From Candidatus Hodarchaeota archaeon (GTDB taxonomy: Archaea; Asgardarchaeota; Lokiarchaeia; Sigyniarchaeales; SOKP01), in NCBI GenBank assembly GCA_048886685.1, contig JBHLKM010000010.1:23946-87945 (forward strand): a stretch of DNA of 64,000 nt, read 5' to 3'. The notes beneath the pieces were generated by a model. It made no database searches, had not been told where the DNA came from, and saw nothing but the letters and a program-made list of their open reading frames with translations. A program made the translations under genes and the position numbers. Position 1 is the stretch's first letter. The number at the start of each line of letters is the position of its first letter. Positions 8,598-48,744 of this stretch are shown here, piece after piece.

Positions 8598-10073
8598 TTA
8601 GAAAATTTCTTCCCCGATTTGACCTCTAGGCGTTATTTCTTTGAAATATTTGTTATATAACTCTTCTCCAATTACTTTTCCTTCAGAACTATGAGCAAGA
8701 TTATTATTTTCATAATAGTCATTAGTCCTGTCATATAACTCTAATAATCTTCCTGAAGTTATATTAAAGACAAATTTCCATTTTGTAGTAGCTCCCATAA
8801 TGAATTTACCAACTTGGCTAATACATAATTCTTTATGATGATAATTCTTATCTAATGTATCATCATAAATAAACGGCAGTAGAGATTTTCCACGATGATT
8901 TGGAGGAGGATTAATATTAAGAATCTCAAATATAGTTGCAGGAATATCAAGTAATTCAACATCCTGTTCAAAAACTTTACCTTTAATTCCCTCAGGAGGT
9001 CTGACTATTAATGGGATCATGACCGCCGATCGATAAAAAACGAATTTCATGAAGAGTTTATGATCTCCCAGCATCTCTCCATGATCACTTGTATAGATAA
9101 TCCAAGTATTATCTAATAATCCCTTTTCCTCTAAGATTTTTCTTATTTCTCCTATTTTCTGGTCAATTAATGTCACATTCGCATAATACGCTGCTCTACT
9201 CTTTTTAATATAATCCTCGGTAAGATTTTTACTTCTACTAATGTTTCGAGATACAGAAATGTAATAAGGAAAAGGTCTTTTTGGTCCTTGAATCTCTTCA
9301 CCATTTAAGTTTACTTCTTCTGGATTATATAGATCTACATATTCTTTTATACAATCAAAAGGATCATGGGGCCCAGGAATACCAATAAATAAGCAGAAGG
9401 GTTTATTGGAATCTTGAATATTATTGTAATTTTTCAGCCATTTTATTGCCAAATCTCCTACAAAATTGTCTATATAATACTCACTTGGTAAAGGGATTGG
9501 TTCGGCTAAAAGAATTGGGTATTTTGTTAGGTGTTCTTGATAAGCTTTTAAAAGATCATGTTCTTCTAATGCATCAGTATAGTATGAACCCACTCTTCTA
9601 GATTCCATTTTTCCACATACTTCTTGAATTTCGGTAAAGCCAATTTCCTTCATTCCGGCTTCATGATTTTTCGCATGATCATCTAATGATCCCAGTTCTA
9701 ACTTTGCAGTTCTTCCTTTTGATAAATGACGAACAAAATGTTGCTTACCTATATCAATCGTTTCATATCCATTATGCTTTAAAATGTTTAGAAAAGAGTC
9801 TTGAATTAGTTCTGGACATCTTTCGTGAATAAAGGTACGATTTGAATAGGTCCCTAATTCATGAACATACCGTCCCAATAAATGAACTGCTCTTGCAGGA
9901 ACACATAGGGGGGACTGAGTTATTGTATTCTTAAATCTAACCCCCTCCGAAGCAAGGCGATCTAAATTTGGTGTTTTAACAATAGGATGGCCAGCACAAC
10001 CCATAATGTCGGCTCTATGCTGATCAGGCATGATAATAACAAAATTTGGTTTTGTCCCCATGATTCTTCTCAT
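8598..10073 (-). CDS. Cys-type S1 sulfatase-like hydrolase
   Basis: PDQHRAD, CVPAR, GKQH, PGPHDP and SDHGE motifs. Confidence 0.92.
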   Translation of the reverse strand: MRRIMGTKPNFVIIMPDQHRADIMGCAGHPIVKTPNLDRLASEGVRFKNTITQSPLCVPARAVHLLGRYVHELGTYSNRTFIHERCPELIQDSFLNILKHNGYETIDIGKQHFVRHLSKGRTAKLELGSLDDHAKNHEAGMKEIGFTEIQEVCGKMESRRVGSYYTDALEEHDLLKAYQEHLTKYPILLAEPIPLPSEYYIDNFVGDLAIKWLKNYNNIQDSNKPFCLFIGIPGPHDPFDCIKEYVDLYNPEEVNLNGEEIQGPKRPFPYYISVSRNISRSKNLTEDYIKKSRAAYYANVTLIDQKIGEIRKILEEKGLLDNTWIIYTSDHGEMLGDHKLFMKFVFYRSAVMIPLIVRPPEGIKGKVFEQDVELLDIPATIFEILNINPPPNHRGKSLLPFIYDDTLDKNYHHKELCISQVGKFIMGATTKWKFVFNITSGRLLELYDRTNDYYENNNLAHSSEGKVIGEELYNKYFKEITPRGQIGEEIF

Positions 10074-10157
10074 ATTTATTTTTGATCTTAGAATATTTTT
10101 ATTTCGTTTTTTTAATATTTAATAATAACTAAAAAGGGAAAAAAATTTTAGATTCAA

Positions 10158-11651
10158 TTATTCTACAGCCCGTTTTGGAGGTGATCCGGATAATGTACTT
10201 TTAATACTGTTTTCTTGGAAAACTTTAAATTTGTTTTCATCCATCTTAGCAAGAAGCTTGATTAAATAATTATCTATTAATTCTTGACGAACAGAATTTA
10301 ATAATGAGTTATTAATGAGATTATTTAATTCATTTGGATCATTTTCTAAATCATACATCTCTACTGGTTTTCTATTCGCTGATTCAATTACCAGTTTATA
10401 TTTATCACTACGAACCATGGAGAAACCAGAAACCTCACTAAAGATAACTTTTTTTCCCGCTTGAGCTCCTTTACTATTGGGTCCAGATAGTACTTGTGAG
10501 ACTAAAGATCTTCCCTCACTACCTTCTAATGGTTGCGCATCAGCAATTTCTATTAAAGAAGCTGTAATGTCAAGATGATCTGTTAACCCTTGACAAGACC
10601 AACCGTTTATTCCTCCTGGTGGTCTAATTATGAGTGGGACATGAATAGCTCCTTCATAAAATACCAACTTATGACTCATGAAGTGATCCCCAAGCATTTC
10701 TCCATGGTCAGAATTATAAATAACCCATGTAATGTCTAATAAACCTTTTTCGGCCAATTCTTTTACAATTTCACCAATAAAAAAGTCGATTAATGTTATC
10801 TTTGCATAATAGAAAGTTCGTAAGATTTGATTTTGTTCTGTTGTCATATCTTTAAGACCACTTGAACTGAGTCTACTCTTATTTAAGCGGTGAGTTGGTT
10901 CCTGAGGCCATTCCAGAATTCCTAACGGCGTATTTTCTGGATTGTACATGTCTCTGTATTCTGCTGGAGAATCGAATGGATCATGAGGACCTGGAAACAA
11001 TATTTGAAGATAAAAGGGCTTATGGTCATTATAGTTGCGTATCCATTCTATAGCCCTCCGACCGGTATAACTATCTAAATGGTCTTCTGTCGGGAGAGGA
11101 CTGGGGGGATCTTCCCAAGGTTTAGCTTCACTAACCCAATATTTCCTGAGATATCTTAAAATATACGTTTTATGAGTTCTTAGTAATCCTTTTCCTTTTA
11201 AATAATCAGTATAAGGTGATCTATGAATAGCACTAGCCCATGGTCCTGTTAGGTCATGAATGTCAATAAAACCCCAATCCTCCAATAATTTAATTATCTC
11301 ATTGCGATTTTTCATTTTTCCTCGAACACCATGTGTATAAAGATGAGTCTTTCCGATAAGAGCAGTATGGTAACCAGCATCGCGAATATTTCTAACATGA
11401 CTTGGTCCATTGGATCTAGCTTCAATAGCATTATTCCACACTCCGTGCTCACATACATACCGACCAGTCATCATTGTAGCTCTAGCAGGCATACAGAGAG
11501 GAGAATTAGTAAAACAGTTAGTGTATATGACTCCTTCCCTTGCCAATTTGTCTAGATTAGGAGTTATTACGGAAGGATGCCCAACGCATCCAAGAGTGTC
11601 TCCTCGATGTTGATCCGAAAAAATATAGATAATATTAGGTTTTTCACTCAT
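10158..11651 (-). CDS. Cys-type S1 sulfatase-like hydrolase
   Basis: SDQHRGD, CMPAR, GKTH, PGPHDP and SDHGE motifs. Confidence 0.92.
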   Translation of the reverse strand: MSEKPNIIYIFSDQHRGDTLGCVGHPSVITPNLDKLAREGVIYTNCFTNSPLCMPARATMMTGRYVCEHGVWNNAIEARSNGPSHVRNIRDAGYHTALIGKTHLYTHGVRGKMKNRNEIIKLLEDWGFIDIHDLTGPWASAIHRSPYTDYLKGKGLLRTHKTYILRYLRKYWVSEAKPWEDPPSPLPTEDHLDSYTGRRAIEWIRNYNDHKPFYLQILFPGPHDPFDSPAEYRDMYNPENTPLGILEWPQEPTHRLNKSRLSSSGLKDMTTEQNQILRTFYYAKITLIDFFIGEIVKELAEKGLLDITWVIYNSDHGEMLGDHFMSHKLVFYEGAIHVPLIIRPPGGINGWSCQGLTDHLDITASLIEIADAQPLEGSEGRSLVSQVLSGPNSKGAQAGKKVIFSEVSGFSMVRSDKYKLVIESANRKPVEMYDLENDPNELNNLINNSLLNSVRQELIDNYLIKLLAKMDENKFKVFQENSIKSTLSGSPPKRAVE

Positions 11652-11811
11652 TTTTTATCCCCATTCAAAATGGTTAGTATTATTACTTATTTTTCAATCT
11701 ATGTTTATAATAGATTTAATAATAACTTAAGGTAAAACAAAATAAAAATTATACTATTTGATAATTTTCAAATCAGTACCATAAACAGTTTTTAAATTAA
11801 AGGATGATTGT

Positions 11812-13215
11812 ATGTCCAAGAGACCAAATTTTCTTATACTCTTTCCGGACCAGCATAGGGGAGATTTTATGCCTTATAATAAGGAAATATTTCAAAAGTT
11901 GGGCATGACAGAACTTCCCCTTAGAATGCCAAATATTAAAAGGATTATGAAAAAGGGGGTAACATTTACAAATGTAATTACTCCATCTCCTTTATGTGCT
12001 CCAGCAAGAGCCTGTTTAGCATCAGGATTAAGATATAAAGATTGCAGAGTTGTTAGTAATTCTGTGGATTATCCCGTTGATCTAAAAACATATTATTCAG
12101 CATTAAAAGAAGTTGGATATATTGTTAGTTCAGTAGGAAAATTAGATTTGCATAAACCAACGCTGTATTGGGGTTTAAATGGATGGATCCCAGATTTAGA
12201 TAAGATAGGATTTACGCATGTAATCGATAGTGAAGGCAAATGGGATGCATTCTTATCACTTAGGGCAGATAAATCAGAAACTAAACCTCAGAATGGAATC
12301 TCACCGCAAATTCACACCCCAAAAGGACCATACATGAAGTATTTACAAGATAAGAACCTCTTAACAGTTCATATGAGTGATTTTAAGAAACGATTTAAAA
12401 AATATTACACCGAACCTACACCTTTACCCGAAGAATCATATGGTGATAATTGGATTACTCAAAATGCGCTAACCATGCTAAATAATTTTCCAAAAGATAA
12501 TCCTTGGCATTTAGTAGTGAATTTTACAGGGCCTCATGAACCTTGGGACGTTACAGAACGAATGAAGAAAGAATGGGAAAATGTACCGTTTCCCAAACCG
12601 TTTAATGGGAATGTGAAAAAAGTGGACGAAGAAATAAAAATTCGTCAGAATTATGCCGCAATGTTGGAAAATATAGACCGGAATATTGGAATTATTATTG
12701 ATAAAGTAAAAGATAGAGGAGAAATCGACAATACGATTATAATATATGCAAGTGATCATGGAGAAATGTTAGGTGATTTTAACAAACATGGTAAACAATT
12801 ACCTCAACGTGGATCAACTCATATACCTTTAGTTATTTCGGGTCTAAATATATCAAAAGGCCAATATGACAACCAATTAGTAGAATTGCAGGATCTAACA
12901 AACACAATATTGGATTACGCTCAAATTAGCATGAAAGAGGCTAAAGCCTCTATATCATTAAAAGACTTGCTTGAAGGGAATAAAAATAACCACAGAAAAT
13001 ATCAGATATCTGCTCTTAATTTAAGTGGAAAGGAAAATTCTGGATGGAAGTTGATAAAGAATGAACGCTATAAACTCGTAATAGAGAAAGATATGGAGTT
13101 TAAGTTGTATGATCTCAATCAAGATCCTTGGGAAAGTGATGATTGCTCAAAAGAGAATCCTATTATCGTAAAAGAATTACTTAATGAATTACAAAATGTT
13201 TATCTTGAGAGATAA
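11812..13215 (+). CDS. Cys-type S1 sulfatase-like hydrolase
   Basis: PDQHRGD, CAPAR, GKLDLH, GPHEP and SDHGE motifs. Confidence 0.92.
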   Translation: MSKRPNFLILFPDQHRGDFMPYNKEIFQKLGMTELPLRMPNIKRIMKKGVTFTNVITPSPLCAPARACLASGLRYKDCRVVSNSVDYPVDLKTYYSALKEVGYIVSSVGKLDLHKPTLYWGLNGWIPDLDKIGFTHVIDSEGKWDAFLSLRADKSETKPQNGISPQIHTPKGPYMKYLQDKNLLTVHMSDFKKRFKKYYTEPTPLPEESYGDNWITQNALTMLNNFPKDNPWHLVVNFTGPHEPWDVTERMKKEWENVPFPKPFNGNVKKVDEEIKIRQNYAAMLENIDRNIGIIIDKVKDRGEIDNTIIIYASDHGEMLGDFNKHGKQLPQRGSTHIPLVISGLNISKGQYDNQLVELQDLTNTILDYAQISMKEAKASISLKDLLEGNKNNHRKYQISALNLSGKENSGWKLIKNERYKLVIEKDMEFKLYDLNQDPWESDDCSKENPIIVKELLNELQNVYLER

Positions 13216-13309
13216 TCCCTTTTTTAAAGAATCAAATAAATTTTTAAACTAATTGAAATTATGATTTGTTAATTTATATTCATTAATTTCTCAATAAATA
13301 GTTAAAATC

Positions 13310-14434
13310 ATGTTTGCGAAGCCAAAGAAAATAGGAAAATTAGAGATTAAAAATAGGTTTGTGAGGTCAGCAACCTATGAAGGATTAGCTACTGAGGATG
13401 GTGAAATTACTGATAAATTAATCGATTTTTATAAAACACTTTCAGAAGGAGGGTGCGGATTAATAATAACCAGCCATGCTTTTGTACAACCAAATGGAAG
13501 AGCTGGCGAGAATCAAATCGCTGTATCTAAAGATGATTTCATTCCAGGATTAAAAAAACTAGCAGATATTATTCATAAACATAATAGAGATTGTAAAGTA
13601 GCATTACAATTGACTCATTCAGGTCGCCAAACGAGGAGAATTGATGCTAAAGATATCATTGCTCCTTCAGCAGTATTGGATAGTTTTACAAATAAAATGC
13701 CAAGAGAAATGACTGTTGAAGAAATAGAAGAAACAATCGAAGCTTTCGCTCAAGCAGCAAGAAGGGCTAAAGAGGCTGGTTTTGACGCTGTTCAACTCCA
13801 TGGTGCCCATGGATGGTTGATTAGTGAATTTTTATCTCCTTATACAAACAAACGAACTGACGAATATGGTGGTAATACAGATAATCGAATAAGATTTGTA
13901 GAAAAAATTTATTTAAGAAGCAGAGAATTAGTAGGAGATGATTTTCCCATATTAATCAAAATGAATTGTGATGATTTTTTAGATGGAGGGATAACTCTTA
14001 AAGATTCAAAAAAAATCGCTAAAAAATTATCTAAAATTGGTTTTGGTGCTATAGAAATCAGTAGTTGCATGTGGGAAACTGTCAAACGAAAGAGAAAAGA
14101 AATTGGCTGGAAACCTACGTTTATACCTGAAAGCCGACCATCTGTTGGAACTAGAAATGAGGCTGCATATCATTTACCATATGCTAAAGAAATCAAAAAA
14201 GACCTTGATATTCCACTAATATTAGTAGGTGGAATTAATTCAATCGATTTAGTTGAAGAAATTTTAAAGAATGGGCATGCTGATTTCGTTTCATTTAGTA
14301 GACCATTAATTCGAGAACCAGATCTCCCAAATAGGTGGATGAAAGGCATCGGAAGTGCATTAGTTGAATGTGATTATTGCAACAATTGTTTATTTAATCT
14401 GGCTAAAACAGGTCTTCACTGCCCCAAAAAATAA
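13310..14434 (+). CDS. NADH:flavin oxidoreductase (Old Yellow Enzyme family) with C-terminal Cys cluster
   Basis: KNRFVRSAT, GFDAVQLHGAHGWL, NKRTDEYGG, SRPLIREPDLP and C-terminal CDYCNNC-x10-C. Confidence 0.93.
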   Translation: MFAKPKKIGKLEIKNRFVRSATYEGLATEDGEITDKLIDFYKTLSEGGCGLIITSHAFVQPNGRAGENQIAVSKDDFIPGLKKLADIIHKHNRDCKVALQLTHSGRQTRRIDAKDIIAPSAVLDSFTNKMPREMTVEEIEETIEAFAQAARRAKEAGFDAVQLHGAHGWLISEFLSPYTNKRTDEYGGNTDNRIRFVEKIYLRSRELVGDDFPILIKMNCDDFLDGGITLKDSKKIAKKLSKIGFGAIEISSCMWETVKRKRKEIGWKPTFIPESRPSVGTRNEAAYHLPYAKEIKKDLDIPLILVGGINSIDLVEEILKNGHADFVSFSRPLIREPDLPNRWMKGIGSALVECDYCNNCLFNLAKTGLHCPKK

Positions 14435-14623
14435 GAATCTTAAAAAAATAAAAGAGATTTCAATATCCTTAAACCATACAAAAATTTTATAAATCTATTA
14501 TTATTTTTAATTGAATTTTTATGGTCTAAAAACTTTAAAATATGTGTATTCATCCCAAATTCCTTAATTTAATAAATAATTATTTTGTTTAATTATTATA
14601 TCCAAAACAAATTGATCTAAACC

Positions 14624-15751
14624 ATGTTTGCGAAACCAAAAAATATAGGGAATTTAGAAATTAAAAATAGGTTTGTGAGAGCAGCAACTTTTGAAGGTTT
14701 GGCTACTGAAGAAGGTGAAATTACAGAAAAATTGATCGATTTTTATAGAACACTTTCAGAAGGTGGAACTGGATTAATCATAACTAGTTATGCGTTTGTG
14801 CAAGAAAGTGGAAGAGCTAACATTAAACAAATTGCTGCATGTAGTGATGATTTCATTCCTGGGTTAAAAAAATTAGCAAATGTTGTTCATAAGCATGGGG
14901 AGGGATCCAAAGTAGCGCTGCAAATAGTTCATGCTGGTCGTCAATCCCACCATTTGAAAGAACCTTTAGCTCCTTCAGCAGTATTGGAGAATTTTTCTAA
15001 AAAAATGCCAAGAGAAATGACCATAAATGAAATTGAAGAGACAATCGAAGCATTTTCTCAAGCATCAAGAAGGGCGAGAGAAGCAGGTTTTGATGCTGTT
15101 CAATTACACGGTGCTCATGGATATTTAATAAGTGAATTTTTATCTCCCTACACTAATAGAAGAATAGATGATTATGGTGGGGATACAAATAAACGACTAA
15201 GATTTGTTGAACAGATTTATGGGAGAACTCGAGAGTTAGTAGGGGATGATTTTCCAATTCTAATTAAAATAAATTGTGATGATTTTCTAGAAGGTGGAAT
15301 TACTCTCGAGGAATCCAAGAAAATAACAAAAATACTTTCTAATATAGGATTTGATGCTATTGAAATCAGTAGTTGTATGTGGGAAACTGTTCGACGAAAG
15401 AAAGAAGAGTTAGGATGGAAACCTACTTTCATACCAGAAAGTCGTATGGCAGTTGGTACCATAAATGAGCCAGCTTATCATTTGCCTTATGCTAAAGAAA
15501 TTAAAAAGGGTATTGATATTCCATTGATATTAGTGGGAGGTATTAATTCAATAGATTTGGTTGAAGAAATTTTAAATAAAGGAGATGCTGATTTTGTTTC
15601 ATTTAGTAGACCGCTAATTCGAGAACCAGACCTCCCAAATAGGTGGATAAAAGGCATCGGAAGTAACACTGTTGAATGTGATTATTGCAATAATTGTTTG
15701 CCGACAATATATGCAACAGGCCTTTTATGCCCTAAAAAGGAGAAATCCTAA
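14624..15751 (+). CDS. NADH:flavin oxidoreductase (OYE family), tandem paralog
   Basis: Same motifs, with the canonical HGAHGYL. Confidence 0.93.
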   Translation: MFAKPKNIGNLEIKNRFVRAATFEGLATEEGEITEKLIDFYRTLSEGGTGLIITSYAFVQESGRANIKQIAACSDDFIPGLKKLANVVHKHGEGSKVALQIVHAGRQSHHLKEPLAPSAVLENFSKKMPREMTINEIEETIEAFSQASRRAREAGFDAVQLHGAHGYLISEFLSPYTNRRIDDYGGDTNKRLRFVEQIYGRTRELVGDDFPILIKINCDDFLEGGITLEESKKITKILSNIGFDAIEISSCMWETVRRKKEELGWKPTFIPESRMAVGTINEPAYHLPYAKEIKKGIDIPLILVGGINSIDLVEEILNKGDADFVSFSRPLIREPDLPNRWIKGIGSNTVECDYCNNCLPTIYATGLLCPKKEKS

Positions 15752-15817
15752 AGTATCTGAAGAATTACACATAAATCTTCGATATTATAAATATTAAAAT
15801 AAAGGAGAATGTAATGA

Positions 15818-16678
15818 ATGAGTTCAAGTAAATTAATGAACCTAGAAGAAGCAGTTTCTACTTATGTAAATGATGGAGATCTTGTCGGGATTGGAGGACT
15901 TTCTTTTTGGAGAAAGGCAACCAGTGCTTGTCGAGAAATAATTAGGCAGAATAAAAAAGACCTTTCAATTTGTACGTTTGTTGGGGGCATAGAAGTAGAT
16001 ATGCTCATAGCAGGAGGGTGTGTTTCAGAAGTGAGAAGCTGTTTTGTAGGAATGGAAATATTTGGCATGGCTCCACACTACAGAAAAGCTGTCGAATCTG
16101 GTTCTATAAAAATTTCCGAAGAAAGTGAAGCTACTATTGCTTTAGGATTGAGAGCATCTTACTTGAAAGTTCCATTTATGCCTTTAAAGGGTATCATCGG
16201 AACTGACATGCCGAAAGTAAGGGATGATATTAAACAAATTGAAGATCCTCTTGGTTCAGGTACTCAAGTTATGGCAGTACCTAAGATAGACCTAGATGTT
16301 GCTATTTTACATGTGCCTTATGCAGATGAATATGGGAACGGTAATATAGCGGGAGCTGTGTGGATGGATGCGGATATGGCAAAAACAGCAAAAAAAACAA
16401 TTGTTATCTGTGAAAAATTAGTAGAAACTGAGGATATTCGCTATTTATCAGGAAAAGCACAATTACCTATGCAAACTACCACTGCTGTTGTGAAAAAACC
16501 TTTTGGCGCACATCCAACCTCATGTTACCCTTTTTATACGTTTGATCCGCTTCATATTCAATGCTATTTAAAAACAAATTTTGAAGAATATAGGAAAAAA
16601 TTCATAACAGATAAAACTACTGCTCAATATTTAGAAGAAGCAGGTGGAGTTCAAACAATATTTAATATTTTATTATAG
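15818..16678 (+). CDS. family I CoA-transferase-like alpha subunit (GctA/IpdA-like)
   Basis: DGDLVGIGG, VPFMP, DVAILHVPYADEYGNG and PFGAHPTSC motifs. AAGGAG SD upstream. Confidence 0.9.
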   Translation: MSSSKLMNLEEAVSTYVNDGDLVGIGGLSFWRKATSACREIIRQNKKDLSICTFVGGIEVDMLIAGGCVSEVRSCFVGMEIFGMAPHYRKAVESGSIKISEESEATIALGLRASYLKVPFMPLKGIIGTDMPKVRDDIKQIEDPLGSGTQVMAVPKIDLDVAILHVPYADEYGNGNIAGAVWMDADMAKTAKKTIVICEKLVETEDIRYLSGKAQLPMQTTTAVVKKPFGAHPTSCYPFYTFDPLHIQCYLKTNFEEYRKKFITDKTTAQYLEEAGGVQTIFNILL

Positions 16679-16690
16679 GAGGGAAAGATA

Positions 16691-17569
16691 ATGAGCGAAC
16701 ATTCGAAAGATTATACTATTGATGAATTGATGACAGTCTTAATGGCCAGAGAAGTAAGAAATGATGATGTAATGATCGTTGGTGTCGCAACTCCCATGGT
16801 ATGGGCAGCATTTACCTTAGCAAAAGTAACACATGCTCCTAACGCTATTTATCATTATATTATGGGAAACACATTTGTTATGGAACCTCGACAAGTGAGT
16901 TTGCTTTATCATGAAATGAACACAGCAAGAGCATACCGATTACAAGATAGTGTAGAATGCACTTTAGAATCATTGCCTTCTGATAAACTAACTACTATTG
17001 AATTTTTCAGACCCGCTCAGATTGATCAATATGGAAATAGTAATAACATATGCATTGGTGATTGGAACAATCCAAAAATAAGGCTTCCTGGCGCCGCAGG
17101 TATACTTGATTTTAGCATGTTCTATTCTCGTGGCTCTTTTCTTTATACACCTCGACATGATACAAGAACATTTGTGCCATCAGAAAAATTGTCTTTTATT
17201 TCTGGTGTTGGATTTCCTGAGGGAAAACCTTCAATATGTGGTGGGGCAGGCCCACAATGCGTCATTACCAATCTTGCTTATTTAGATTTTGATGAAAAAA
17301 CAAAAAAAATGAGATTAAGTTCAATCCATCCTGGTATTGACCTTGAAACAGTAAAGAATTCAACAGGATTCGATTTAGTAATACCTAAAAACCTATTAGA
17401 CTCTATGCCTCCTACTAAAAAAGAACTTGAATTGTTAAGGAATAAGGTTGATCCGTTAAATATAAGAAAATTAGAAATATTAGCTGGTAAAGAACGTGAA
17501 GATTTATTAAATGAAATCATCCAAAAAGAACTAATTATGGAAAATAGATTTCCTAAATTAATATTCTAA
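16691..17569 (+). CDS. family I CoA-transferase-like beta subunit (GctB/IpdB-like)
   Basis: YTIDELM..AREV, THAPN, AQIDQYGN, RLPG and GPQCVITNL motifs. GGAGG SD upstream. Confidence 0.9.
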   Translation: MSEHSKDYTIDELMTVLMAREVRNDDVMIVGVATPMVWAAFTLAKVTHAPNAIYHYIMGNTFVMEPRQVSLLYHEMNTARAYRLQDSVECTLESLPSDKLTTIEFFRPAQIDQYGNSNNICIGDWNNPKIRLPGAAGILDFSMFYSRGSFLYTPRHDTRTFVPSEKLSFISGVGFPEGKPSICGGAGPQCVITNLAYLDFDEKTKKMRLSSIHPGIDLETVKNSTGFDLVIPKNLLDSMPPTKKELELLRNKVDPLNIRKLEILAGKEREDLLNEIIQKELIMENRFPKLIF

Positions 17570-17739
17570 TTTGATAATTATAAATTATTAATCCAAATCA
17601 TATAAGATGATATAATCAAATTTCATATCTTCTTAAAAAGTAAAAATTATAAATTGAAATAACTGATTATTAATCATTCTTAAAATCAATGTAATAGAAT
17701 TTATGGTTAAGAAATTAGTGAAAATGTTAATGCAAACCA

Positions 17740-20700
17740 ATGATGGGCGAATCTGAAGATATATTATTAGAAAAAGCAGAACTTGAAGAAAAAACTTATA
17801 ATTGGACAGAAGCAGCAGTTGTATACGAAAAGCTAGTAAAAGAGTATAAAAGAGCAAACATATTAGATAAAGCAGCAGTTCTTTATAAAAGGCTTGGTTT
17901 TGTTAATTCACAAGCAGCTGATACGGTTAGAACAACAGAGCAGTATATTTCACTAAAAAGTATAGCAATAATGAATTATAGGAAAGCAGGTAACCTGTTT
18001 AAAAGTATCGGAATTAAAGCTGAAGAATTAGAATGTTATGGTGAAGCTCTCTATGAAGAAGGATGTACTAGCACTTCAATTAATACAGGTGAAAAAGAGT
18101 TCAAAAATTCTCTAGAATTTTTCATCCAAGCAAGTGAACTATTCTCTAATAAGGGAGATGAGGAGGGCTTTACAAGAAATATTATTAGATCTGCAATGTG
18201 TATGCATAATTTAATGAAATATGTTAAGAATCCTAAAGAATTGGAAAATATATTTGATGAAGGGACAGATTATGCAGAAAAAGCATGGAAATTTTCAAAA
18301 AAGTTAAACCATTTGAATTATCTAACTGATTCTCTTTACGCTTTGGTGAATATAATCATCCATAATTGCTTTGTAGAAGAAATGCCAACTTTTTATAATT
18401 TGGATCAAGGAAAAACACTAGCTTTTGATTTTAAAAAGTGGTTTAAGCGAGCAAAGATGACATTTGAGCTCACAAAAGATCAAAATAATTTAAAGATTCA
18501 TGGAATTATTAATTTTATCTTAGGATTTCTTTACTTCTATTATGGTTTTTTTCTCGCTGAAAATATGAGTGAGCAGAATCACAACATTGAAGAAGGTTTA
18601 ATTTTATGTGAAAAGGGATTAGATTTTATAAGAAAGACAAAGGATAATGGTATTATTACATTAATCATATTCTGGTTGAATTGGTGTGCGGTTATTGGTG
18701 GAAAAATTAATTATGTCCAGAAAAGGATTATTCAGGACATTAAAGAAATAAAAGAAGCTGGAAAGGTATATTCTAACTTATTTAGTTTTTGGAATTTTTA
18801 TAGCAATTTCTTACCTGCTCTTTATTACACAAATATTGCTCAGAGAAGCTTTTACGGTCCTAAGCAAAGAGAATCCTACGCCAAAGAAGCCTTAAACTAT
18901 GCTAAAGCTTCTCATAATAATATAGCTTTTAAGCCTTTTAGTGCCTGGGCATATCAAATATTAACTTGGTCTTACTCACAGTTAGTCTATCTTGCTAAAA
19001 ATGAGGAAGATAGAAGTAAATATGCAAAAAGTATGGTTGAGGCTGCAGAGAATACAAATAAAATTGGATCTGAGTACAAAAAAGGGTTTAGTAGAACTTC
19101 TGGATATTCTGCACTGTATAGATCATTCAAGACTCTAGCTGACATTGCTCAGAATAAAGAAAACAAAATTAAAATGTTAAGATCTGCTGTTGATGCTGCT
19201 GATAATTATTTAGATCACCCTGTAGAATCTCGGACAGGATTTATTGCTGCAAAGATACGTTTAGGGCTCCTTTATGAAGAATTGGGAATTATTTCTAAGG
19301 AAAAATCCTATTTAATAAGAGCAAAAGAAGTATATCTGAATGTAATAGAGGATAGCTTAAATAGGGGACATATTTCCTATGCAGCAGCTAGTCACGAATG
19401 TATTGCTCGTATCGAGGACCGATTAGGTAATCATAATGTTTCAGCAGAATATTATGATAAAGCACAAAAAGGATATGAAGAATCATTAAGTTTTATAGAT
19501 TATAAATTATTGAAAGACAGAATATTTGAGAAAAAGAATTATTCATTAGCTTGGAAATTAATTGAAAATGCTAAGTCATATCATAAAAAGGAAGATCATT
19601 CAAAAGCAAAGGAAAGTTATGAAGAGGCAAATAAAATATTAAGTGGTTTATCAAAATATAACTACGAAGCACATTATTATTTTGCTTGGATGCTATTGGA
19701 GGAAGCAGAATTACTTAGCAAACAAGAAGATCATAATAAAGCAATAAAGCAATATGAACAAACTAAAATGAATTTTTATGAAGCAATTACAATATTAGAA
19801 TCAACTCTTAATAAGACTAAAGAAAAAATGGAAAATGAAAGGATTAAGAAGCTCATTAAAGTAGCTAGAGTAAGAATGAACTATTGTTCAGCAAGAATTA
19901 ATCTTGAAAAAGCAAGGTTATTAGAAAAGCAAGGAAATAACCTAGCTGCTGCTGAAAACTTTGCAACTGCGGCTTCCATATTTAAGAATCTTTGTGAGGT
20001 ATTTAAGACAGAAAGTGAGAGAGTTGAGCTTGAGGCTATTTATTATCTTTGTCAAGCATGGGAAACTATGGCATTAGCAGAAACATATGAAGACCCAATA
20101 AGATTTGCACAAGCCTCAGACCTATTTAAAAATGCTAGTGAGATTTTTATTGATAGTAAATTAAATTTACTCGCATCAGGTAATTCATCTTTTTGTAAAG
20201 CTTTAGAATTAGGATGTAAATTTGACAAATCTCTTGAAAAGGAATTCAAAGAGGGATTATACCCAAAAGTTAAGATACTCCTAAGAAACGCGGCTTCTTC
20301 TTATAGAAAAGGTGGGTTTGAAAATGGAGCAGATTGGGCATTAGCAACTTCAACTTATTTTGATGCTGCTTGGTATATAATCAAAGCAGACATGGAAACA
20401 AATTTAGAGGAAAAGAAAAATCTATTAGAAATAGCAAGCAAACTTCTGACGTCAGCATCGGAGCTTTTTGAAAAAGCTGATTATGAACATAAGAAGAATG
20501 AGGTGTTAGATCGGCTTGAATCATTGAAAACAGAAGATAAAATTATTGTTTCTGCTTTGAATACTATAAAAAAACCATCAATGTCGAGCAGTACATTAGG
20601 AATTAAAGCATCTGCATGTCCATTAGAAACGAGTTCATCTTCAAAATTAAGTGAAATTCGTCAGTTTACGGAGGAAGAAACCAAGGGGCTTGAGAGGAGA

Positions 20701-21585
20701 AGTGTTAAGAAGAAATATAAACTTATTTATAAAGATTTATTAAAAATATATCCAAAAATCCAAAGAAGAGAATGTAGAGTTGGAATCGCTCAAATAGGGA
20801 TTTCAAAGACAGGTGATCTTTTAAATGAATTTTATGAAGTGAAATCTTCAGGTCTTTTAGGCATTCGAGATGAAAAAATCGAAAAAGTTAAATCAGTAGT
20901 AAAAAAAATAATTCAAAATGCGAATAAGAGTGATATAGATGTTCTAATATTTCCAGAAATGACTATTGACTTAAACTATATAGATTTTCTAGAGGAATTA
21001 TCAAATTTAGCTAGGACTCATAGCATGTATCTTATTCCTGGATCATACCACGACACGGCGACAAAAAGAAATATTAGCTTGGTAATTGGACCAGAAGGGA
21101 TCCTCTGGGAACAAGAAAAACATACACCTGCTATAATGCATATTGAAGGAAATAGAATTAAAGAAGCAATAAAGGTAAATGCTCTAATTAAAAAGACAAT
21201 AGTGTGCAATACCGAGTTTGGAAGAATTGTCATAGTTATCTGTCGGGATTTCCTTGATATGGATTTGAGAGTGGAATTGAAAAATTTTGAACCACCAGTT
21301 GATATCGTAATTAATCCCGCATTCACTCCTGTCACAGCTGATTTTAAAGCTGCTCATTTTGATGCACGTAGATCTATATTTGCATATTGCTTCTTTGCAA
21401 ATGTCGCTGAATTTGGAGATTCACTAATTTATACTCCTGAAAAAGATCGGACTGAAAGAAGGATTCCAGCAAAACAAGAGGGATTAATATATAAAGATAT
21501 TGATCTCTTCAAATTGCGTTCTGAACGGAAAAAATGGGAAAAGATAAAAAAGAACGAAGCAAAATTTATTCAAAGTACAAGATAA
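17740..21585 (+). CDS. large alpha-solenoid (TPR/SNAP-like) protein fused to a C-terminal carbon-nitrogen hydrolase (nitrilase) domain
   Basis: About 950 aa of Ala/Tyr-patterned helical repeats, then RVGIAQIG, LIFPEM (Glu), QEKHTP (Lys) and VICRDF (Cys), the nitrilase catalytic triad. Confidence 0.85.
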   Translation: MMGESEDILLEKAELEEKTYNWTEAAVVYEKLVKEYKRANILDKAAVLYKRLGFVNSQAADTVRTTEQYISLKSIAIMNYRKAGNLFKSIGIKAEELECYGEALYEEGCTSTSINTGEKEFKNSLEFFIQASELFSNKGDEEGFTRNIIRSAMCMHNLMKYVKNPKELENIFDEGTDYAEKAWKFSKKLNHLNYLTDSLYALVNIIIHNCFVEEMPTFYNLDQGKTLAFDFKKWFKRAKMTFELTKDQNNLKIHGIINFILGFLYFYYGFFLAENMSEQNHNIEEGLILCEKGLDFIRKTKDNGIITLIIFWLNWCAVIGGKINYVQKRIIQDIKEIKEAGKVYSNLFSFWNFYSNFLPALYYTNIAQRSFYGPKQRESYAKEALNYAKASHNNIAFKPFSAWAYQILTWSYSQLVYLAKNEEDRSKYAKSMVEAAENTNKIGSEYKKGFSRTSGYSALYRSFKTLADIAQNKENKIKMLRSAVDAADNYLDHPVESRTGFIAAKIRLGLLYEELGIISKEKSYLIRAKEVYLNVIEDSLNRGHISYAAASHECIARIEDRLGNHNVSAEYYDKAQKGYEESLSFIDYKLLKDRIFEKKNYSLAWKLIENAKSYHKKEDHSKAKESYEEANKILSGLSKYNYEAHYYFAWMLLEEAELLSKQEDHNKAIKQYEQTKMNFYEAITILESTLNKTKEKMENERIKKLIKVARVRMNYCSARINLEKARLLEKQGNNLAAAENFATAASIFKNLCEVFKTESERVELEAIYYLCQAWETMALAETYEDPIRFAQASDLFKNASEIFIDSKLNLLASGNSSFCKALELGCKFDKSLEKEFKEGLYPKVKILLRNAASSYRKGGFENGADWALATSTYFDAAWYIIKADMETNLEEKKNLLEIASKLLTSASELFEKADYEHKKNEVLDRLESLKTEDKIIVSALNTIKKPSMSSSTLGIKASACPLETSSSSKLSEIRQFTEEETKGLERRSVKKKYKLIYKDLLKIYPKIQRRECRVGIAQIGISKTGDLLNEFYEVKSSGLLGIRDEKIEKVKSVVKKIIQNANKSDIDVLIFPEMTIDLNYIDFLEELSNLARTHSMYLIPGSYHDTATKRNISLVIGPEGILWEQEKHTPAIMHIEGNRIKEAIKVNALIKKTIVCNTEFGRIVIVICRDFLDMDLRVELKNFEPPVDIVINPAFTPVTADFKAAHFDARRSIFAYCFFANVAEFGDSLIYTPEKDRTERRIPAKQEGLIYKDIDLFKLRSERKKWEKIKKNEAKFIQSTR

Positions 21586-21595
21586 TATTGTCTTT

Positions 21596-21754
21596 TTATT
21601 CATAACTAACCTTCTTTATATATAACTTTATTTCGCGATTATGCTTTTCAAGTATTATAAAATCCAGTTTAGTTAGTTTATCAACATGATATTTTACAGA
21701 ACTTCTTCTCATAATTAATTTCCTGGATATCATTGCTGAATTAATACCGGGATT
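21596..21754 (-). pseudogene. 3' remnant of a winged-HTH regulator gene
   Basis: NPGINSAMISRKLIMRRSSVKYHVDKL...REIKLY aligns with the C-terminal wHTH of 32751..34043 (NPGINSSEISRLLNLSRTTIKYHIDKL...RKIELY). The homology stops at ~21754. Confidence 0.75.
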
Positions 21755-21851
21755 TGAAGAATATAAAAATAAATTCATTTTGGATAAAACAACTACTCAA
21801 TATTTAGAAGAAACAGGTGGAATTCAAACAATTTTTAATATTTTACTATAG
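21753..21851 (+). pseudogene. 3' remnant of a CoA-transferase alpha subunit gene
   Basis: Translates as FEEYKNKFILDKTTTQYLEETGGIQTIFNILL*, matching the end of 15818..16678 (FEEYRKKFITDKTTAQYLEEAGGVQTIFNILL*). Confidence 0.9.
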
Positions 21852-21863: not shown

Positions 21864-22745
21864 ATGAGCGAATATTCGAAAGATTATACTATAGATGAAT
21901 TGATGAACGTTTTAATGGCCAGAGAAGTTAGAAACGATGATGTAATGGTTGTCGGTGTCGCAACTCCCATAGTGTGGGCAGCATTTACCTTAGCAAAAGT
22001 AACACATGCCCCAGATGCGATTTATCACTATATAATGGGTTATTCATTCGTAGCAGAACCTCGCCAAGTGAGCTTGCTTTATCTAGAAATGAATACAGCA
22101 AGAGCTTATCGCTTTCAAGACAGTGTGGAATGTACATTGGAATCTCTTCCTTCAGATAAACTAACTACAATTGAATTTTTTAGACCGGCTCAGATTGACC
22201 AATATGGGAATACAATTAATATATGCATTGGAGAGTGGGATAAATCAAAAATTAGACTTCCTGGAGATGCAGGTATTCTTGATTTTAGCATGTTCTATGC
22301 CCGTGGATCTTTTCTCTATACGCCTCGCCATGATACAAGAACGTTTGTTCCTTCTGAAAAACTTGATTTTATATCTGGTGTTGGATTCCCCGACGGAAAA
22401 CCTTCCATATGTGGAGGGTCAGGACCTCAGTGTGTTATTACAAATCTAGCTTATTTAGACTTTGATGATGATACCAAAAGCATGAAATTAGGAATAATTC
22501 ATCCCGGGATTGACCTAAAAACTGTAAAAGAATCAACTGGATTTGAACTAATTACTCCTGATAAAATAAAAGAGACTACACCCCCTTTGAGGAAAGAAAT
22601 TGAAATATTAAGGGAAAAAGTTGATCCATTAAATATCAGAAAAATAGAAGTTCTTTCAGGCAATGAACGAGAAGAGCTATTGGATAATATAATTCAAAAA
22701 GAATTAGCAAAGCAAAATAAATTTCCAAAATTACTTAACAGTTAA
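21864..22745 (+). CDS. second copy of the CoA-transferase-like beta subunit (orphan)
   Basis: Colinear, highly similar paralog of 16691..17569 with a GGAGGT SD. Confidence 0.88.
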   Translation: MSEYSKDYTIDELMNVLMAREVRNDDVMVVGVATPIVWAAFTLAKVTHAPDAIYHYIMGYSFVAEPRQVSLLYLEMNTARAYRFQDSVECTLESLPSDKLTTIEFFRPAQIDQYGNTINICIGEWDKSKIRLPGDAGILDFSMFYARGSFLYTPRHDTRTFVPSEKLDFISGVGFPDGKPSICGGSGPQCVITNLAYLDFDDDTKSMKLGIIHPGIDLKTVKESTGFELITPDKIKETTPPLRKEIEILREKVDPLNIRKIEVLSGNEREELLDNIIQKELAKQNKFPKLLNS

Positions 22746-41447: not shown

Positions 41448-42104
41448 TTAAGTTGTGGTTATAGCAAAATCAAAATCCTCAGATTTATAAATCCTTATTC
41501 CCCTATCTTCGAACCCTAGTGATTTTAAAAAATTATATGATGCGTAATTATCAATATAAACTTCACTTCTTAATTCAATGATATTTTTTTTCTTAAAAAA
41601 TTCCCAAGCCGTAAGAGCCATGATTTTTCCCAGACCTTTTCTTTGAAAACGAGGAATTACACCCATTGCAACGATTATACCATATTCCTGTTTTGGTCCT
41701 TCAAAATCTAATATCATAAAGCCAGCATCTATTCCATAAACTCTGGCTATAAATATGATTAAATCAGGATCGTTATATAAATCTTTAACGTCATCTATAG
41801 TTAAAGCTCGAAAAGGTTCATGAGAGGTTAACCAAGCTCTATTATACAAGGTTATAAGATTTTCGAGATCATTTTCTTTCACTTCTCTTATTTTTGCTTG
41901 AATAATATTGCGTTCTACATTTTCTTTTAAAACAGTTTCTACTTCTTTGGTTATCTTGTTTAATGGTAACACCATTTGGATATATTTCATTTCAAAATCG
42001 AGATTTTCTTCAATACTTTCTAACTTTTCTAAATTTTTTGGATTTTTCTCTAAAGTCAAGAAATAATTTCTGATTTTTCCTCTTCTATCTTTTTTATCAA
42101 TCAT
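41448..42104 (-). CDS. GNAT-family N-acetyltransferase
   Basis: GVIPRFQRKGLGK acetyl-CoA motif and N..SYNFLKSLGF. Confidence 0.9.
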   Translation of the reverse strand: MIDKKDRRGKIRNYFLTLEKNPKNLEKLESIEENLDFEMKYIQMVLPLNKITKEVETVLKENVERNIIQAKIREVKENDLENLITLYNRAWLTSHEPFRALTIDDVKDLYNDPDLIIFIARVYGIDAGFMILDFEGPKQEYGIIVAMGVIPRFQRKGLGKIMALTAWEFFKKKNIIELRSEVYIDNYASYNFLKSLGFEDRGIRIYKSEDFDFAITTT

Positions 42105-42422
42105 TTTAATTTAGTATTTTATAAATTCTCGTATTTCATTTGTTGAGATTTTTTATTATTTTTCATTCTGTCCCTATTTATTTTTGATTCATTTTATATA
42201 AAATTATATCATAAATTTTCATTTAAAGAGAAATAACAAATCATTTCTTCTCTTAATATTTAGATCATTAATTATTAAGAATATTACATATAAATCAACT
42301 TTTGGTCATTGATTTTTATTTAAAGACTTAAATATAATCCTTTTATTATCTTTAATTGAAAAAAAAAAAAAGATAAGAATGTAAAAAAAATTATTTCAAT
42401 TAAAAAAAAGAAGTGATGAAAA

Positions 42423-43067
42423 ATGGAAGAAGTAAAAAATATCGAAAAATTGGCAAATGAGAATACAAATATAGCTAAAGACGAAAAGCTAAAAGCACAA
42501 GAAATGAAAAATTTAACAAAGCAAGAAGTAAAAAGAGCAAAAGCTAGAGAAATGTTAGTTAAAAATGAGCTTGAATTAGCAAAGATAAGAGAAAGATTAG
42601 CTGAGAAAAGTAAAAAGTTAGTAGAAAGAAAAGAAAAGGTAAAAAATCTTCTAAAATTTTCTGAGGCTACTTTAAAAGCTGAATTAAATCAAGCACGATA
42701 TAATGAAAAAGTTGCAGAGATTCAAAAAGACGTGGCTGAAATTCAACGAAAGATTGCTAATATCGAAACTGAAATTGTGGAGGTTAAAGTAAAACTAGCA
42801 AACATGAAACTTGATGAAGCCAAGGAAAGAGATAATCTAGCAAAAAAGCAATTCGCTTATGTAAAATTAGTAAATAAAAATGCCCCTGGTGAGAAAGTAA
42901 CAAAAGCTGAGGAAGCATACCTTAAACAACAAAAAGAATTGACTAAATTTGAAACTGATGCTATGCAAATAAATAAAAATCTCGTGGAAAAACAGAATAA
43001 ATTAGCTAATCTTAAAAAAGAACAATCGGAAAAATTAGCAGAAAGGGAAAAAATTCGACCGGAATAA
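42423..43067 (+). CDS. all-helical coiled-coil protein, paralog 1
   Basis: Continuous heptads ending in LAEREKIRP. Paralogs lie at 46947 and 49038. Confidence 0.85.
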   Translation: MEEVKNIEKLANENTNIAKDEKLKAQEMKNLTKQEVKRAKAREMLVKNELELAKIRERLAEKSKKLVERKEKVKNLLKFSEATLKAELNQARYNEKVAEIQKDVAEIQRKIANIETEIVEVKVKLANMKLDEAKERDNLAKKQFAYVKLVNKNAPGEKVTKAEEAYLKQQKELTKFETDAMQINKNLVEKQNKLANLKKEQSEKLAEREKIRPE

Positions 43068-43175
43068 ATCCTCTCAAAAATAAATAGAAAATATTTGCTT
43101 TTATTTCTTTTCAAAATATTAAAAAAGAATAGAGTGGAAAAAAAAATTTAAAAATAAAAATTAGTTCTTTTTATA

Positions 43176-43823
43176 ATGAATCCCGAGGATATAATTGTAT
43201 ACATTAGTTTAGGAGTTTCAATTGCAGTTCTTTTCTTTATAATCTGGGATCACATAAAAGATGATAGAATTTTAGCGCGTGAGGTTCAAGATTTTTATAG
43301 CGACATAGAAATGTTAATTTTTACTAATCTCCAAGTGAAATATTACGAAATACTTCAAACAAATCAGGGAGAAATGAGTGAACAAGAATTAAAAACCTTA
43401 GTAAAAAATAAAAATCGAGATGTCATCCAAAAAAACTATTTAAATACTAAAATCAGTCAAAATTTTAAGTTATATGCCCAGTATCTTGGATTAACTTACA
43501 ATAAGGAAAATAATACCTATTTAAATGGAACTATCTATGTTTTAAAAATTGATGGTGCTCTATTAAAAAGAAACATCGAATCTAATACTGAAGAAATAAT
43601 AGTTACATTATATACAGAAATCAAACCTCAGCAGATTTCAGAATTAAATGTGTATCTTAATAGTCTACGCTTTTATTGGAAAAAAAAATATTATAAAGCT
43701 ATTTTTCGACCTCATTTACATCAAACAATAATTTTTGAGGATTTACTCGGATACATAAAACCTTTAGAACAAAAAAAGCAAAAATATTTCAGTATAGTTC
43801 GAAGAAAGGGAAGTAGAATATAA
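43176..43823 (+). CDS. hypothetical protein with N-terminal TM anchor
   Basis: 215-aa ORF with hydrophobic IIVYISLGVSIAVLFFIIW. Confidence 0.75.
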   Translation: MNPEDIIVYISLGVSIAVLFFIIWDHIKDDRILAREVQDFYSDIEMLIFTNLQVKYYEILQTNQGEMSEQELKTLVKNKNRDVIQKNYLNTKISQNFKLYAQYLGLTYNKENNTYLNGTIYVLKIDGALLKRNIESNTEEIIVTLYTEIKPQQISELNVYLNSLRFYWKKKYYKAIFRPHLHQTIIFEDLLGYIKPLEQKKQKYFSIVRRKGSRI

Positions 43824-43862
43824 TTATAAAAAACTCATAAAAAAGTTCTATCCCTATCACTC

Positions 43863-44786
43863 TTACGAAATTTTATATTTATAAATAATATCATAGACAT
43901 CCTTTGCAAATTTTGGTTGAAAATCAAATATTTTTTGTGAATTAAATGTTAATAACCGAAATTTAACAATTATGCTTATATTATAATCAACAATATCAAA
44001 TTGAGGTCTAATTCGAAAAATATTTTTTTGATTGTATAATTCACAAAGTTGTGTTATTTGATTAATAATTACTTGAAATCCTCTATAGGGAAAGGCCATT
44101 CTAAATGTATAGTTGAATAATTTTGGATAGTATTTAGTTGTAAAGGAGTCATAAGCTCTTTTTAAATTCTTTTCAAATTCCTTTCTAGATTTCAAATTAT
44201 CTACGAGTAAATCTTTAAATCCTATATCTTGAGGTGCTAAAATCTTACTCTTAAAATCATCAAAAGTCTTCTTTTTTCCTAATTTGATTGTATAATTGAC
44301 GATCTTAGACGTAAGAACTTGAGTATTTGATTTTTCAATTATTAGATTGTCAAATGTTTCTAATTTCACCTTGGTTAAATTTATTGCTCGAATTATTCCT
44401 TTATCTCCTTCAATTTTGACTAAATCATTGACTTCAAAAGGTCTTGTTAACATTATCACAATACCTGAAATAAAATTTGCAAATATACCACTTGAAGCAA
44501 AAGCTATTGCAGTACTAATTGCTCCTGTAAGTACAGCAGTGTAGGTTGGGTCAATTTTGGATATAATAGGAAAACCCTCAATGATAAAGAACACAATGAT
44601 AAGAACCGTAATGATTTTTAAAGCAAAATTAAAAATAATTTTTTGTTTTAAGGGTATTTTTGTACTTTTACTAAATATCCTAGAGATTAATTTGTTTAAT
44701 AAATATAAACTAATACCTATAATTAAGATGTATACCAATGCTTCCAAATCTGAACTAAAAATTGCCATTTTTAACTTTTCCCTCAT
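43863..44786 (-). CDS. mscS: small-conductance mechanosensitive channel family protein
   Basis: Three TM helices and AIAFA..IFANFISG...RPFEVNDLVKI.G.KG. The start may be MAIF at 44768. Confidence 0.85.
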   Translation of the reverse strand: MREKLKMAIFSSDLEALVYILIIGISLYLLNKLISRIFSKSTKIPLKQKIIFNFALKIITVLIIVFFIIEGFPIISKIDPTYTAVLTGAISTAIAFASSGIFANFISGIVIMLTRPFEVNDLVKIEGDKGIIRAINLTKVKLETFDNLIIEKSNTQVLTSKIVNYTIKLGKKKTFDDFKSKILAPQDIGFKDLLVDNLKSRKEFEKNLKRAYDSFTTKYYPKLFNYTFRMAFPYRGFQVIINQITQLCELYNQKNIFRIRPQFDIVDYNISIIVKFRLLTFNSQKIFDFQPKFAKDVYDIIYKYKIS

Positions 44787-45672: not shown

Positions 45673-45816
45673 AAGAAAGCCCTTATGTCTACTGAAATTA
45701 TAATTCTAAGCATTATATGTTTAATTTAAAAAAGATTAAGAAAACTTTAATTTTAAAAGTTGGCTTAATAAATTATTGTCATTAAAATTCTTTATTATTA
45801 ATTGATGTGAGATAAT

Positions 45817-46905: not shown

Positions 46906-46946
46906 AAGTAAAATAAATTTAAAGATATAATTTCAGAGTTTAAAGT

Positions 46947-47615: not shown

Positions 47616-47785
47616 TTCTTTTCACCATTAAAAATTGAGTTAATTAATTGAATTTAGTTACACTTTTTAGCTAGGAGAGATATTATTTAAATTTACCATA
47701 ATTTTTCATCTCTCAACTTTACTTTTTTTATAGAATTTTTAAAAAAATAAAACGATTTAGAATATCATATTTATAATTAAGATTT

Positions 47786-47977: not shown

Positions 47978-48047
47978 TTTTCTTGATTTCCCCTCTCTTC
48001 TTTTATTTTAAATTTTATTCGATTAATTTATACATCAGTTTCTTTTT

Positions 48048-48617: not shown

Positions 48618-48668
48618 ATTAAGTTGTAGTTTATTATTTTAGTAAGACTCATCTTTTTATATCTAATA

Positions 48669-48744
48669 ATGATATCAAAGTATATAAAGTTGTCGGATCG
48701 ATTTATTGTTATCAAATGAAAACATTTAAATACTATGATATCAT
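48669..48744. promoter_or_regulatory. three TG(A/T)TATCA boxes in a divergent promoter region
   Basis: TGATATCA at 48670 and 48736 (palindromic) and TGTTATCA at 48707. Confidence 0.5.

Follow-up and report, generated by a model that had tools for sequence, protein, structure and literature searches.

What does a long helical repeat protein do with a nitrilase at its C-terminus? The question is raised by one gene, P0001, in a 64,000-nucleotide stretch of DNA from a Candidatus Hodarchaeota archaeon (contig JBHLKM010000010.1), hereafter called the window. An earlier note, made from the letters of this DNA and the translations of its open reading frames (ORFs), had read the gene as a solenoid joined through a linker to a nitrilase-superfamily domain, and our analysis confirmed this organization. 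We propose that P0001 is a single-chain, ligand-gated sensor-effector of an Asgard-specific conflict (immune-like) family, and we give this proposal an even chance. A conflict role fits the gene better than housekeeping or metabolism because its nitrilase is of the defence type, TIR and phosphoesterase domains occur as alternatives to it, and a variable arm is combined with a constant core. The tandem expansion of paralogues and the presence or absence of the gene among close relatives point in the same direction.

The reading frame of P0001 is open throughout its 1281 amino acids (aa), as the earlier note had stated. At E ≤ 0.001, 671 homologues were found, the nearest being an orthologue with 90% identity, and many relatives are full-length (1265–1295 aa, 50–56% identity). 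P0001 is therefore a real gene. The nearest homologues are recorded under the source names Heimdall-, Prometh-, Hermod-, Hod-, Loki- and Thorarchaeota, and the own genome, a 4.4-Mb Asgard-archaeal assembly (G000), contains a single full-length copy. In Pfam, CN_hydrolase (PF00795) is the sole domain above its cut-off, and TPR_12, TPR_8 and TPR_2 match below threshold.

The CN_hydrolase match covers aa 1048–1261 with a score of 30.6 bits, above the cut-off of 23.2, and the genome scan gave 32 bits. The complete E-K-C triad that the earlier note had read in the motifs FPE, EKH and ICRD corresponds to Glu1073, Lys1127 and Cys1168. A fourth conserved residue, Glu1142, is a candidate for the second catalytic glutamate, as judged by spacing only. 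Across 38 aligned family domains, Lys1127 and Glu1142 never vary, Glu1073 is kept in at least 90%, and all but one (37) have Cys1168. The C-terminal tail FIQSTR is identical at the end of every aligned family protein.

We placed the nitrilase domain by hidden Markov model (HMM) scores with same-genome controls, in place of an explicit phylogeny. The isolated domain scored 54, 49, 42 and 21 bits with the PADLOC models CARF_nitrilase, RT_UG5-nitrilase, RTasNitrilase and Drt1a, respectively. These defence models thus fit the domain better than the generic Pfam profile does. The three ordinary CN hydrolases encoded by this genome, which reach 73–140 bits in Pfam, scored 0, 16 and 0 with the PADLOC nitrilase models. 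No NCBIfam nitrilase family matched P0001 at E ≤ 1. A phmmer search of 1.84 billion representatives showed a sharp drop from the family members (at least 38% identity) to matches of 25–36% identity. Among 75 representatives of this outgroup, 60 match RTasNitrilase (best E 1e-55), 53 match RT_UG5-nitrilase and 48 match CARF_nitrilase (best 1e-110). A single-sequence search of the PDB gave the Nit-like structure 7elf (E 1e-3), and a profile search gave Nit2 (E 2.8e-6) and DRT1 (9yfd, E 1e-5), the latter with the longest alignment (profile positions 76–290). By these HMM measures the P0001 nitrilase appears to belong with the DRT- and CARF-associated nitrilases. Grouping with ordinary metabolic amidases, the outcome that the earlier note had set against its own reading of a sensor-gated amidase, is not what the scores indicate (42–54 bits, versus 0–16 for the controls). 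The class 3 UG/Abi nitrilases have been described as a clade apart from other nitrilases (PMC9226505).

Separate searches with the solenoid and the nitrilase, which the earlier note had advised, recovered both other ends and other scaffolds. The same solenoid and linker carry nitrilase, TIR, metallophosphatase, zinc-finger or longin ends, and the expectation that the C-terminal effectors are swappable is thereby confirmed. A Metallophos end was found in P0220, P0227 and a gene on contig G143:C4, and a Cys-rich zinc-finger end in P0222–P0224. A TIR_2 end is present in a 1098-aa ORF of G140:C253, which adjoins two nitrilase copies, and in a 1120-aa ORF of G064:C66. Some genomes of this family (G140, G064, G158 and others) are very rich in TIR_2, with up to 16 matches per genome in ORFs of many lengths; no TIR_2 match was found in the own genome, and contig G135:C221 has a solenoid match with a TIR match upstream of it.

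The longin end belongs to P0122, a paralogue in the own genome. Its last 150 aa were modelled as a beta-beta-alpha-beta-beta-beta-alpha-alpha fold with a predicted local distance difference test score (pLDDT) of 82.6. A Foldseek search with this module matched AP2 sigma, zeta-COP, Mon1-Ccz1, LAMTOR and Ykt6 with a probability of ~1.0 and template modelling (TM) scores of 0.4–0.55. Sequence searches of PDB and Pfam gave no match for it, and the fold search alone identified it as longin/roadblock. The same module is found on many ordinary Asgard TPR proteins of 620–690 aa.

The nitrilase module is likewise found on other scaffolds. Relatives with 40–65% identity are carried by TPR_12/MalT-type arrays of 800–980 aa, by beta-helix/PKD proteins and by alpha/beta hydrolases, and remoter ones (~30% identity) by HEAT plus TrmB-C proteins. 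Two metagenomic proteins of ~1130 aa, P0300 and P0326, combine a TrmB C-terminal-like region and HEAT repeats with a defence-type nitrilase and are among the closest nitrilase outgroups; P0300 scores 43.5 bits with RTasNitrilase and 35.5 bits with RT_UG5-nitrilase.

An AlphaFold2 model of aa 1–985, built from a 63-sequence alignment, contains only alpha-helices, 39 of them, arranged as an unbroken repeat (pLDDT 89.9, predicted TM score 0.82). A Foldseek search with the solenoid model gave long TPR superhelices, namely Ctr9 of Paf1C, Ski3, IFT-A TTC21B, TTC7 and separase. The best matches have E-values of 3e-10 to 1e-5, yet their TM-scores are 0.2–0.4 and their identities 9–13%. P0001 resembles Ctr9, Ski3, TTC21B and TTC7 as a long TPR scaffold, but the likeness is that of a generic superhelix, with no evidence of orthology. 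On this basis we rejected the idea that the solenoid is specifically homologous to eukaryotic SNAP, Ctr9 or Ski3. The earlier note had counted ~950 aa of SNAP/TPR-like repeats. A TPR-like superhelix of ~935 aa is supported by the model and the fold search, but neither SNAP (PF14938) nor any canonical TPR profile of Pfam matches P0001 above its cut-off, and SNAP matches occur in a few of its relatives only.

Sequence conservation divides the solenoid into two parts. The mean pairwise identity is 29–46% at aa 101–450, with a minimum at aa 151–250, and 51–70% across aa 451–935. Over aa 701–950 it reaches 66–70%, and it is 64–69% there even among classes with different end modules. The same pattern is seen within a five-gene array, in which the copies are 25–33% identical to one another at aa 101–450, 59–72% at aa 701–935 and 63–78% in the nitrilase. 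Overall, the core, linker and enzyme of paralogues are 50–78% identical. All but one of the 42 invariant solenoid columns (aa 1–935) fall within aa 451–935.

The linker has the family consensus EPSISRST.GIVAPACP.ETS.SPRL.E.RQFTEE, and this motif is kept in the nitrilase, longin, metallophosphatase, zinc-finger and TIR variants. In the monomer model, aa 951–985 are non-helical, yet their pLDDT is ~80–87. We docked the linker in trans by predicting a complex of aa 1–935 with aa 936–985, using an alignment of our own as input. The prediction reached an ipSAE of 0.68, compared with 0.00 for the best of three controls. Of 80 solved complexes, 58 score this high, as do 2 of 110 mismatched pairs, a calibration that holds only roughly for an input of this kind (own alignment). 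At least 91% of the contacts agree between the runs, and the pLDDT of the partner is at least 76. The predicted interface comprises 104 residues, spanning core residues 499–925, and contains 20 of the 42 invariant solenoid residues, including Tyr601, Trp605, Arg701, Arg712, Arg719, Trp774, Trp866 and Phe874. The hypergeometric p value of this enrichment is ~1e-9 overall and ~1e-4 within aa 499–925. Docking and conservation support, but do not prove, the view that the core and the linker form one conserved unit. The segment that the earlier note had described as a Ser-rich linker is indeed present, but it is no floppy spacer, being common to all paralogue classes and predicted to dock in the solenoid.

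To describe the distribution of the family, presence was counted at E ≤ 1e-20 in 200 genomes sampled across the Asgard phylum. The family was matched in 57 of them and in 29 of the 84 high-quality ones. By taxonomic family, it was present in 21 of 39 genomes of f1, 12 of 43 of f7, 15 of 19 of f12, 7 of 10 of f22 and none of 21 of f5. Several genomes of the same family that are 98–100% complete have no copy of the gene. Many other genomes have several copies, and tandem arrays occur: three on G120:C33, two each on G170:C45, G191:C1 and G155:C71, and five in a row on a Hermodarchaeota contig, which is the longest array. The many full-length matches of 50–55% identity had suggested a universal housekeeping protein, and this possibility was rejected because of the patchy presence, the lack of the gene in complete genomes of its family, the multi-copy genomes and the tandem arrays. 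The fusion is neither invariant nor universal in the lineage; an invariant and universal fusion was the other outcome that the earlier note had set against its own reading. Literature searches on Asgard and Lokiarchaeota nitrilase, TPR and TIR proteins found no published description of the family, which we regard as undescribed, patchy, multi-copy and Asgard-specific.

In the mechanism that we propose, the linker would lie along the inner groove of the conserved core, as predicted, and touch many of its invariant residues. The core and the linker would serve as a constant chassis, to which the end modules are joined just after RQFTEE. The variable N-terminal repeats would recognize a cue, either a protein or a peptide, whose most plausible source is a virus or another mobile element. 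Cue binding may alter the superhelix or the plug, letting the nitrilase domains assemble into an active oligomer. Nitrilases need a homo-oligomer for activity (Pace and Brenner 2001, as cited in PMC13275509), and the invariant C-terminal tail might act as an inter-subunit lid, by analogy with DRT1 (PMC13275509). The nitrilase would then arrest growth by hydrolysing an essential molecule that bears an amide or amine. More tentatively, the family may represent a class of innate-immune receptors without a nucleoside triphosphatase (NTPase), in which a TPR core is plugged by its own linker, an N-terminal arm that senses invaders diverges fast, and displacement or re-setting of the plug licenses oligomerization of the end module, be it nitrilase, TIR or metallophosphatase. 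We consider this possible but doubtful.

If this last suggestion is true, the defence-type nitrilase would be an immune effector widely shared across bacteria and archaea. The family would also represent a further sensor-effector design, one that dispenses with an NTPase switch and in which a self-threaded linker is the constant adaptor. Nitrilases have only lately joined the effectors of anti-virus immunity, and their part in it is unexplained. Phage defence by DRT1 and UG5 requires their nitrilase (PMC13275509, PMC13436386). The P0001 family provides hundreds of natural variants of this enzyme type, freed from the reverse transcriptase and placed on a simple protein-binding scaffold, and may offer an independent route to the substrate and the activation logic. 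What Asgard archaea possess in immunity and signalling is relevant to how eukaryotic systems arose, and here TIR and longin modules share one chassis.

Among the known systems, the class 3 UG/Abi defence reverse transcriptases DRT1 (UG1; PDB 9yfd) and UG5/DRT11 have a nitrilase that falls, by HMM score, in the same divergent clade as that of P0001. In both cases the nitrilase is C-terminal in a protein of ~1200 aa and comes after a stretch of alpha-helical repeats. DRT1 and P0001 both end in a conserved tail, which in DRT1 forms the lid of the neighbouring active site (PMC13275509). The enzyme end of UG/Abi class 3 proteins is also replaceable, by the phosphohydrolase COG3294 and not by Metallophos, a parallel that holds by analogy only. 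In contrast to DRT1 and UG5, P0001 has no reverse transcriptase (Pfam and PADLOC match the C-terminal nitrilase only), and regulation by DNA adducts therefore cannot apply to it. It has instead a TPR-like N-terminus of ~935 aa and a conserved linker that is predicted to be threaded, and its host lineage is the Asgard archaea. The similarity to DRT1 itself is remote (Drt1a 21 bits, 9yfd E 1e-5).

The best-scoring defence model (54 bits) is the CARF-nitrilase of type III CRISPR ancillary modules (PADLOC PDLC01989), which has the same design as P0001 in that a sensor domain is fused to this type of nitrilase. However, P0001 has neither a CARF domain, the PADLOC match being confined to the nitrilase part of the profile (positions 208–412), nor a CRISPR context. 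Its proposed sensor is a protein-binding repeat scaffold, whereas CARF is a receptor of cyclic oligoadenylates. Prokaryotic immune sensors of the STAND/NLR-like type with TPR arms (Avs-type) combine a repeat sensor with interchangeable effectors, including TIR, and an NTPase switch. The P0001 family shares with them the repeat sensor, swappable modules including TIR, patchy occurrence and paralogue expansion. In P0001, however, the effector is C-terminal, behind the constant core and the linker, and there is no NTPase switch. The activation mechanism must therefore differ from that of STAND/NLR proteins.

Several observations weigh against a sensor-effector of conflict. Pfam, NCBIfam and PADLOC gave no NTPase (NACHT, NB-ARC or AAA-like) or other switch domain in P0001. 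In every genomic context that was read, the flanking genes are metabolic or unrelated, with no conserved neighbour and no recognizable defence island. A nitrilase-profile scan found no relatives on viral contigs, which is neutral in itself but provides no link to viruses. The solenoid core is more strongly conserved than is usual in pathogen sensors, and the N-terminal part is variable, not hypervariable, the orthologue being 90% identical overall. The longin and zinc-finger ends, which are not obvious toxic effectors, fit signalling better. The closeness of the nitrilase to the PADLOC models is a sign of relatedness and not of function. The docking of the linker models a cis contact in trans, and the enrichment of invariant residues in the predicted interface is not independent, because the prediction and the choice of conserved residues rest on one and the same alignment.

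These observations bring into play a regulatory or cell-biological scaffold enzyme, in which the solenoid would be a protein-binding platform of Asgard machinery for signalling or trafficking-like processes and the ends would be signalling or protein-modifying outputs. The nitrilase would then act by deamidation or deacylation on a protein held by the solenoid or on a small signalling molecule, with no cell killing. The longin-type end of P0122, with the Foldseek matches given above and a protein-atlas lead to Roadblock/LAMTOR2, and the occurrence of that module on many ordinary TPR proteins argue for this role, as do the high conservation of core and linker and the absence of a defence-island context in the loci seen. 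Further support comes from a small P-loop/GTPase-like protein of 296–333 aa that has a segment with 40–46% identity to part of the solenoid core (about aa 700–895). Its gene is clustered with ThiF (E1) and JAB at three loci (L003, L031 and L033; Table 1), with a UQ_con (E2) gene in the L031 cluster. The L003 cluster lies on contig C11 of the own genome, ~30 kb from P0122, and the C-terminal ~150–200 aa of its 333-aa protein are 36–46% identical to this part of the core. As a general partner, however, the E2-E1(ThiF)-JAB-P-loop cluster was rejected, since in a tblastn search it adjoined the arrays in 2 of 29 stretches only (L031 and L033), both of one genus. The defence-associated nearest relatives of the nitrilase and the TIR and metallophosphatase alternatives, which are typical conflict effectors, also speak against a scaffold role, and a copy number of 0 to 5 or more, with the gene missing from complete genomes of the same family, is odd for core cell biology. 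We consider the signalling scaffold somewhat unlikely but give it about half the weight of the sensor-effector, since longin and zinc-finger ends occur, the core is strongly conserved and no defence neighbourhood was seen. If it is right, the closest prokaryotic relatives of eukaryotes possess a large unexplored set of scaffold enzymes.

The same architecture might also serve another beneficiary, as an offensive or addiction-type module, either a selfish gene resembling a toxin or a weapon directed at competitors or hosts. The patchy multi-copy distribution, the shuffling of modules, the position of P0001 at a rearrangement and deletion breakpoint and some extracellular-looking beta-helix/PKD proteins among the nitrilase-module relatives are compatible with this. 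On the other hand, Pfam gave no signal peptide-like or secretion-associated domain in P0001, and neither a conserved small immunity-like gene nor mobile-element genes were seen adjoining it; we regard such a role as highly improbable. Still less credible is a metabolic amidase linked to the CoA-transferase and old-yellow-enzyme genes next to it, with the solenoid for assembly or localization only. The gene does sit among sulfatase, old-yellow-enzyme and CoA-transferase genes, and the upstream CoA-transferase pair is kept in the 90% identical relative. However, this synteny is confined to two very close genomes, the neighbours of other homologues are unrelated, and the presence of the gene does not track that of the neighbouring enzyme genes in the contexts sampled, which led us to reject the metabolic link. 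No metabolic nitrilase family of NCBIfam matches the domain, the genome already has three ordinary CN hydrolases that behave differently in the HMM control, and the swaps for TIR, longin and zinc-finger ends would be left unexplained.

Table 1. Positions of the features described in the text (window coordinates unless a contig or locus is named).
Feature	Position	Strand	Basis or remark
Whole gene P0001, solenoid-linker-nitrilase, 1281 aa	17740..21585	+	Open ORF, 671 homologues
Variable N-terminal TPR-like superhelix, aa 1-450, candidate recognition surface	17740..19089	+	Helical model, low paralogue identity
Conserved C-terminal superhelix core, aa 451-935, predicted linker holder	19090..20544	+	Identity, invariant columns, predicted interface
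Conserved extended linker, aa 936-985	20545..20694	+	Motif conservation, model, docking prediction
Divergent nitrilase-superfamily domain, aa 986-1281, with invariant C-terminal tail FIQSTR	20695..21582	+	Pfam, alignment, PADLOC
Sulfatase genes (two -, one +), then two old-yellow-enzyme genes	8598-15751	mixed	Paralogue runs
CoA-transferase beta, upstream copy	16691-17569		81% identical to downstream copy
CoA-transferase beta, downstream copy	21864-22745		81% identical to upstream copy
Segment collinear with relative's contig	15812-21754		90.5% nucleotide identity
Deletion scar	21596-21851	winged-helix remnant -	Abuts last 42 codons of lost second CoA-transferase alpha
Own-genome paralogue P0122, 1125 aa	L002:1075-4452 = G000:C11:34515-37451	-	43% identical to P0001 over aa 5-993
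ThiF (E1)-JAB cluster, own genome	L003:62-2559	-	Same as G000:C11 cluster
ThiF (E1)-JAB cluster with UQ_con (E2)	L031:761-3695		
ThiF (E1)-JAB cluster	L033:14628-16000		
Giant ORF of relative	L018:14814-23846		Product listed as 6673 aa, faint DUF6250

The region of the window around P0001 is AT-rich (~30–34% G+C), and scans of the window for tRNAs and Rfam families gave no match. Upstream of the gene lie three sulfatase genes, two paralogous old-yellow-enzyme genes and an alpha/beta pair of CoA-transferase genes, and downstream are a second CoA-transferase beta copy, IlvD and a MinD-like gene. The earlier note had placed the gene between two copies of CoA-transferase-like genes. Two copies do flank P0001, and both were found to be beta-type subunits. 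The duplicated sulfatase, old-yellow-enzyme and CoA-transferase beta genes suggest that the region is prone to segmental duplication.

The contig of the close relative is collinear with the window over the CoA-transferase pair, P0001 and a convergent winged-helix gene. In the window, the winged-helix gene is reduced to a remnant that is 72% identical to residues 9–66 of the relative's 66-aa HTH_24 gene, with the junction at 21754. An insertion of P0001 into a CoA-transferase alpha gene was considered and rejected. A deletion scar is the better explanation, because the relative keeps the winged-helix gene between P0001 and the position of the alpha remnant.

In the relative, a giant ORF lies ~1 kb downstream of the orthologue of P0001 and is absent here. 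Within the window, the G+C content falls to 24–27% at positions 42000–53000, compared with 30–34% elsewhere.

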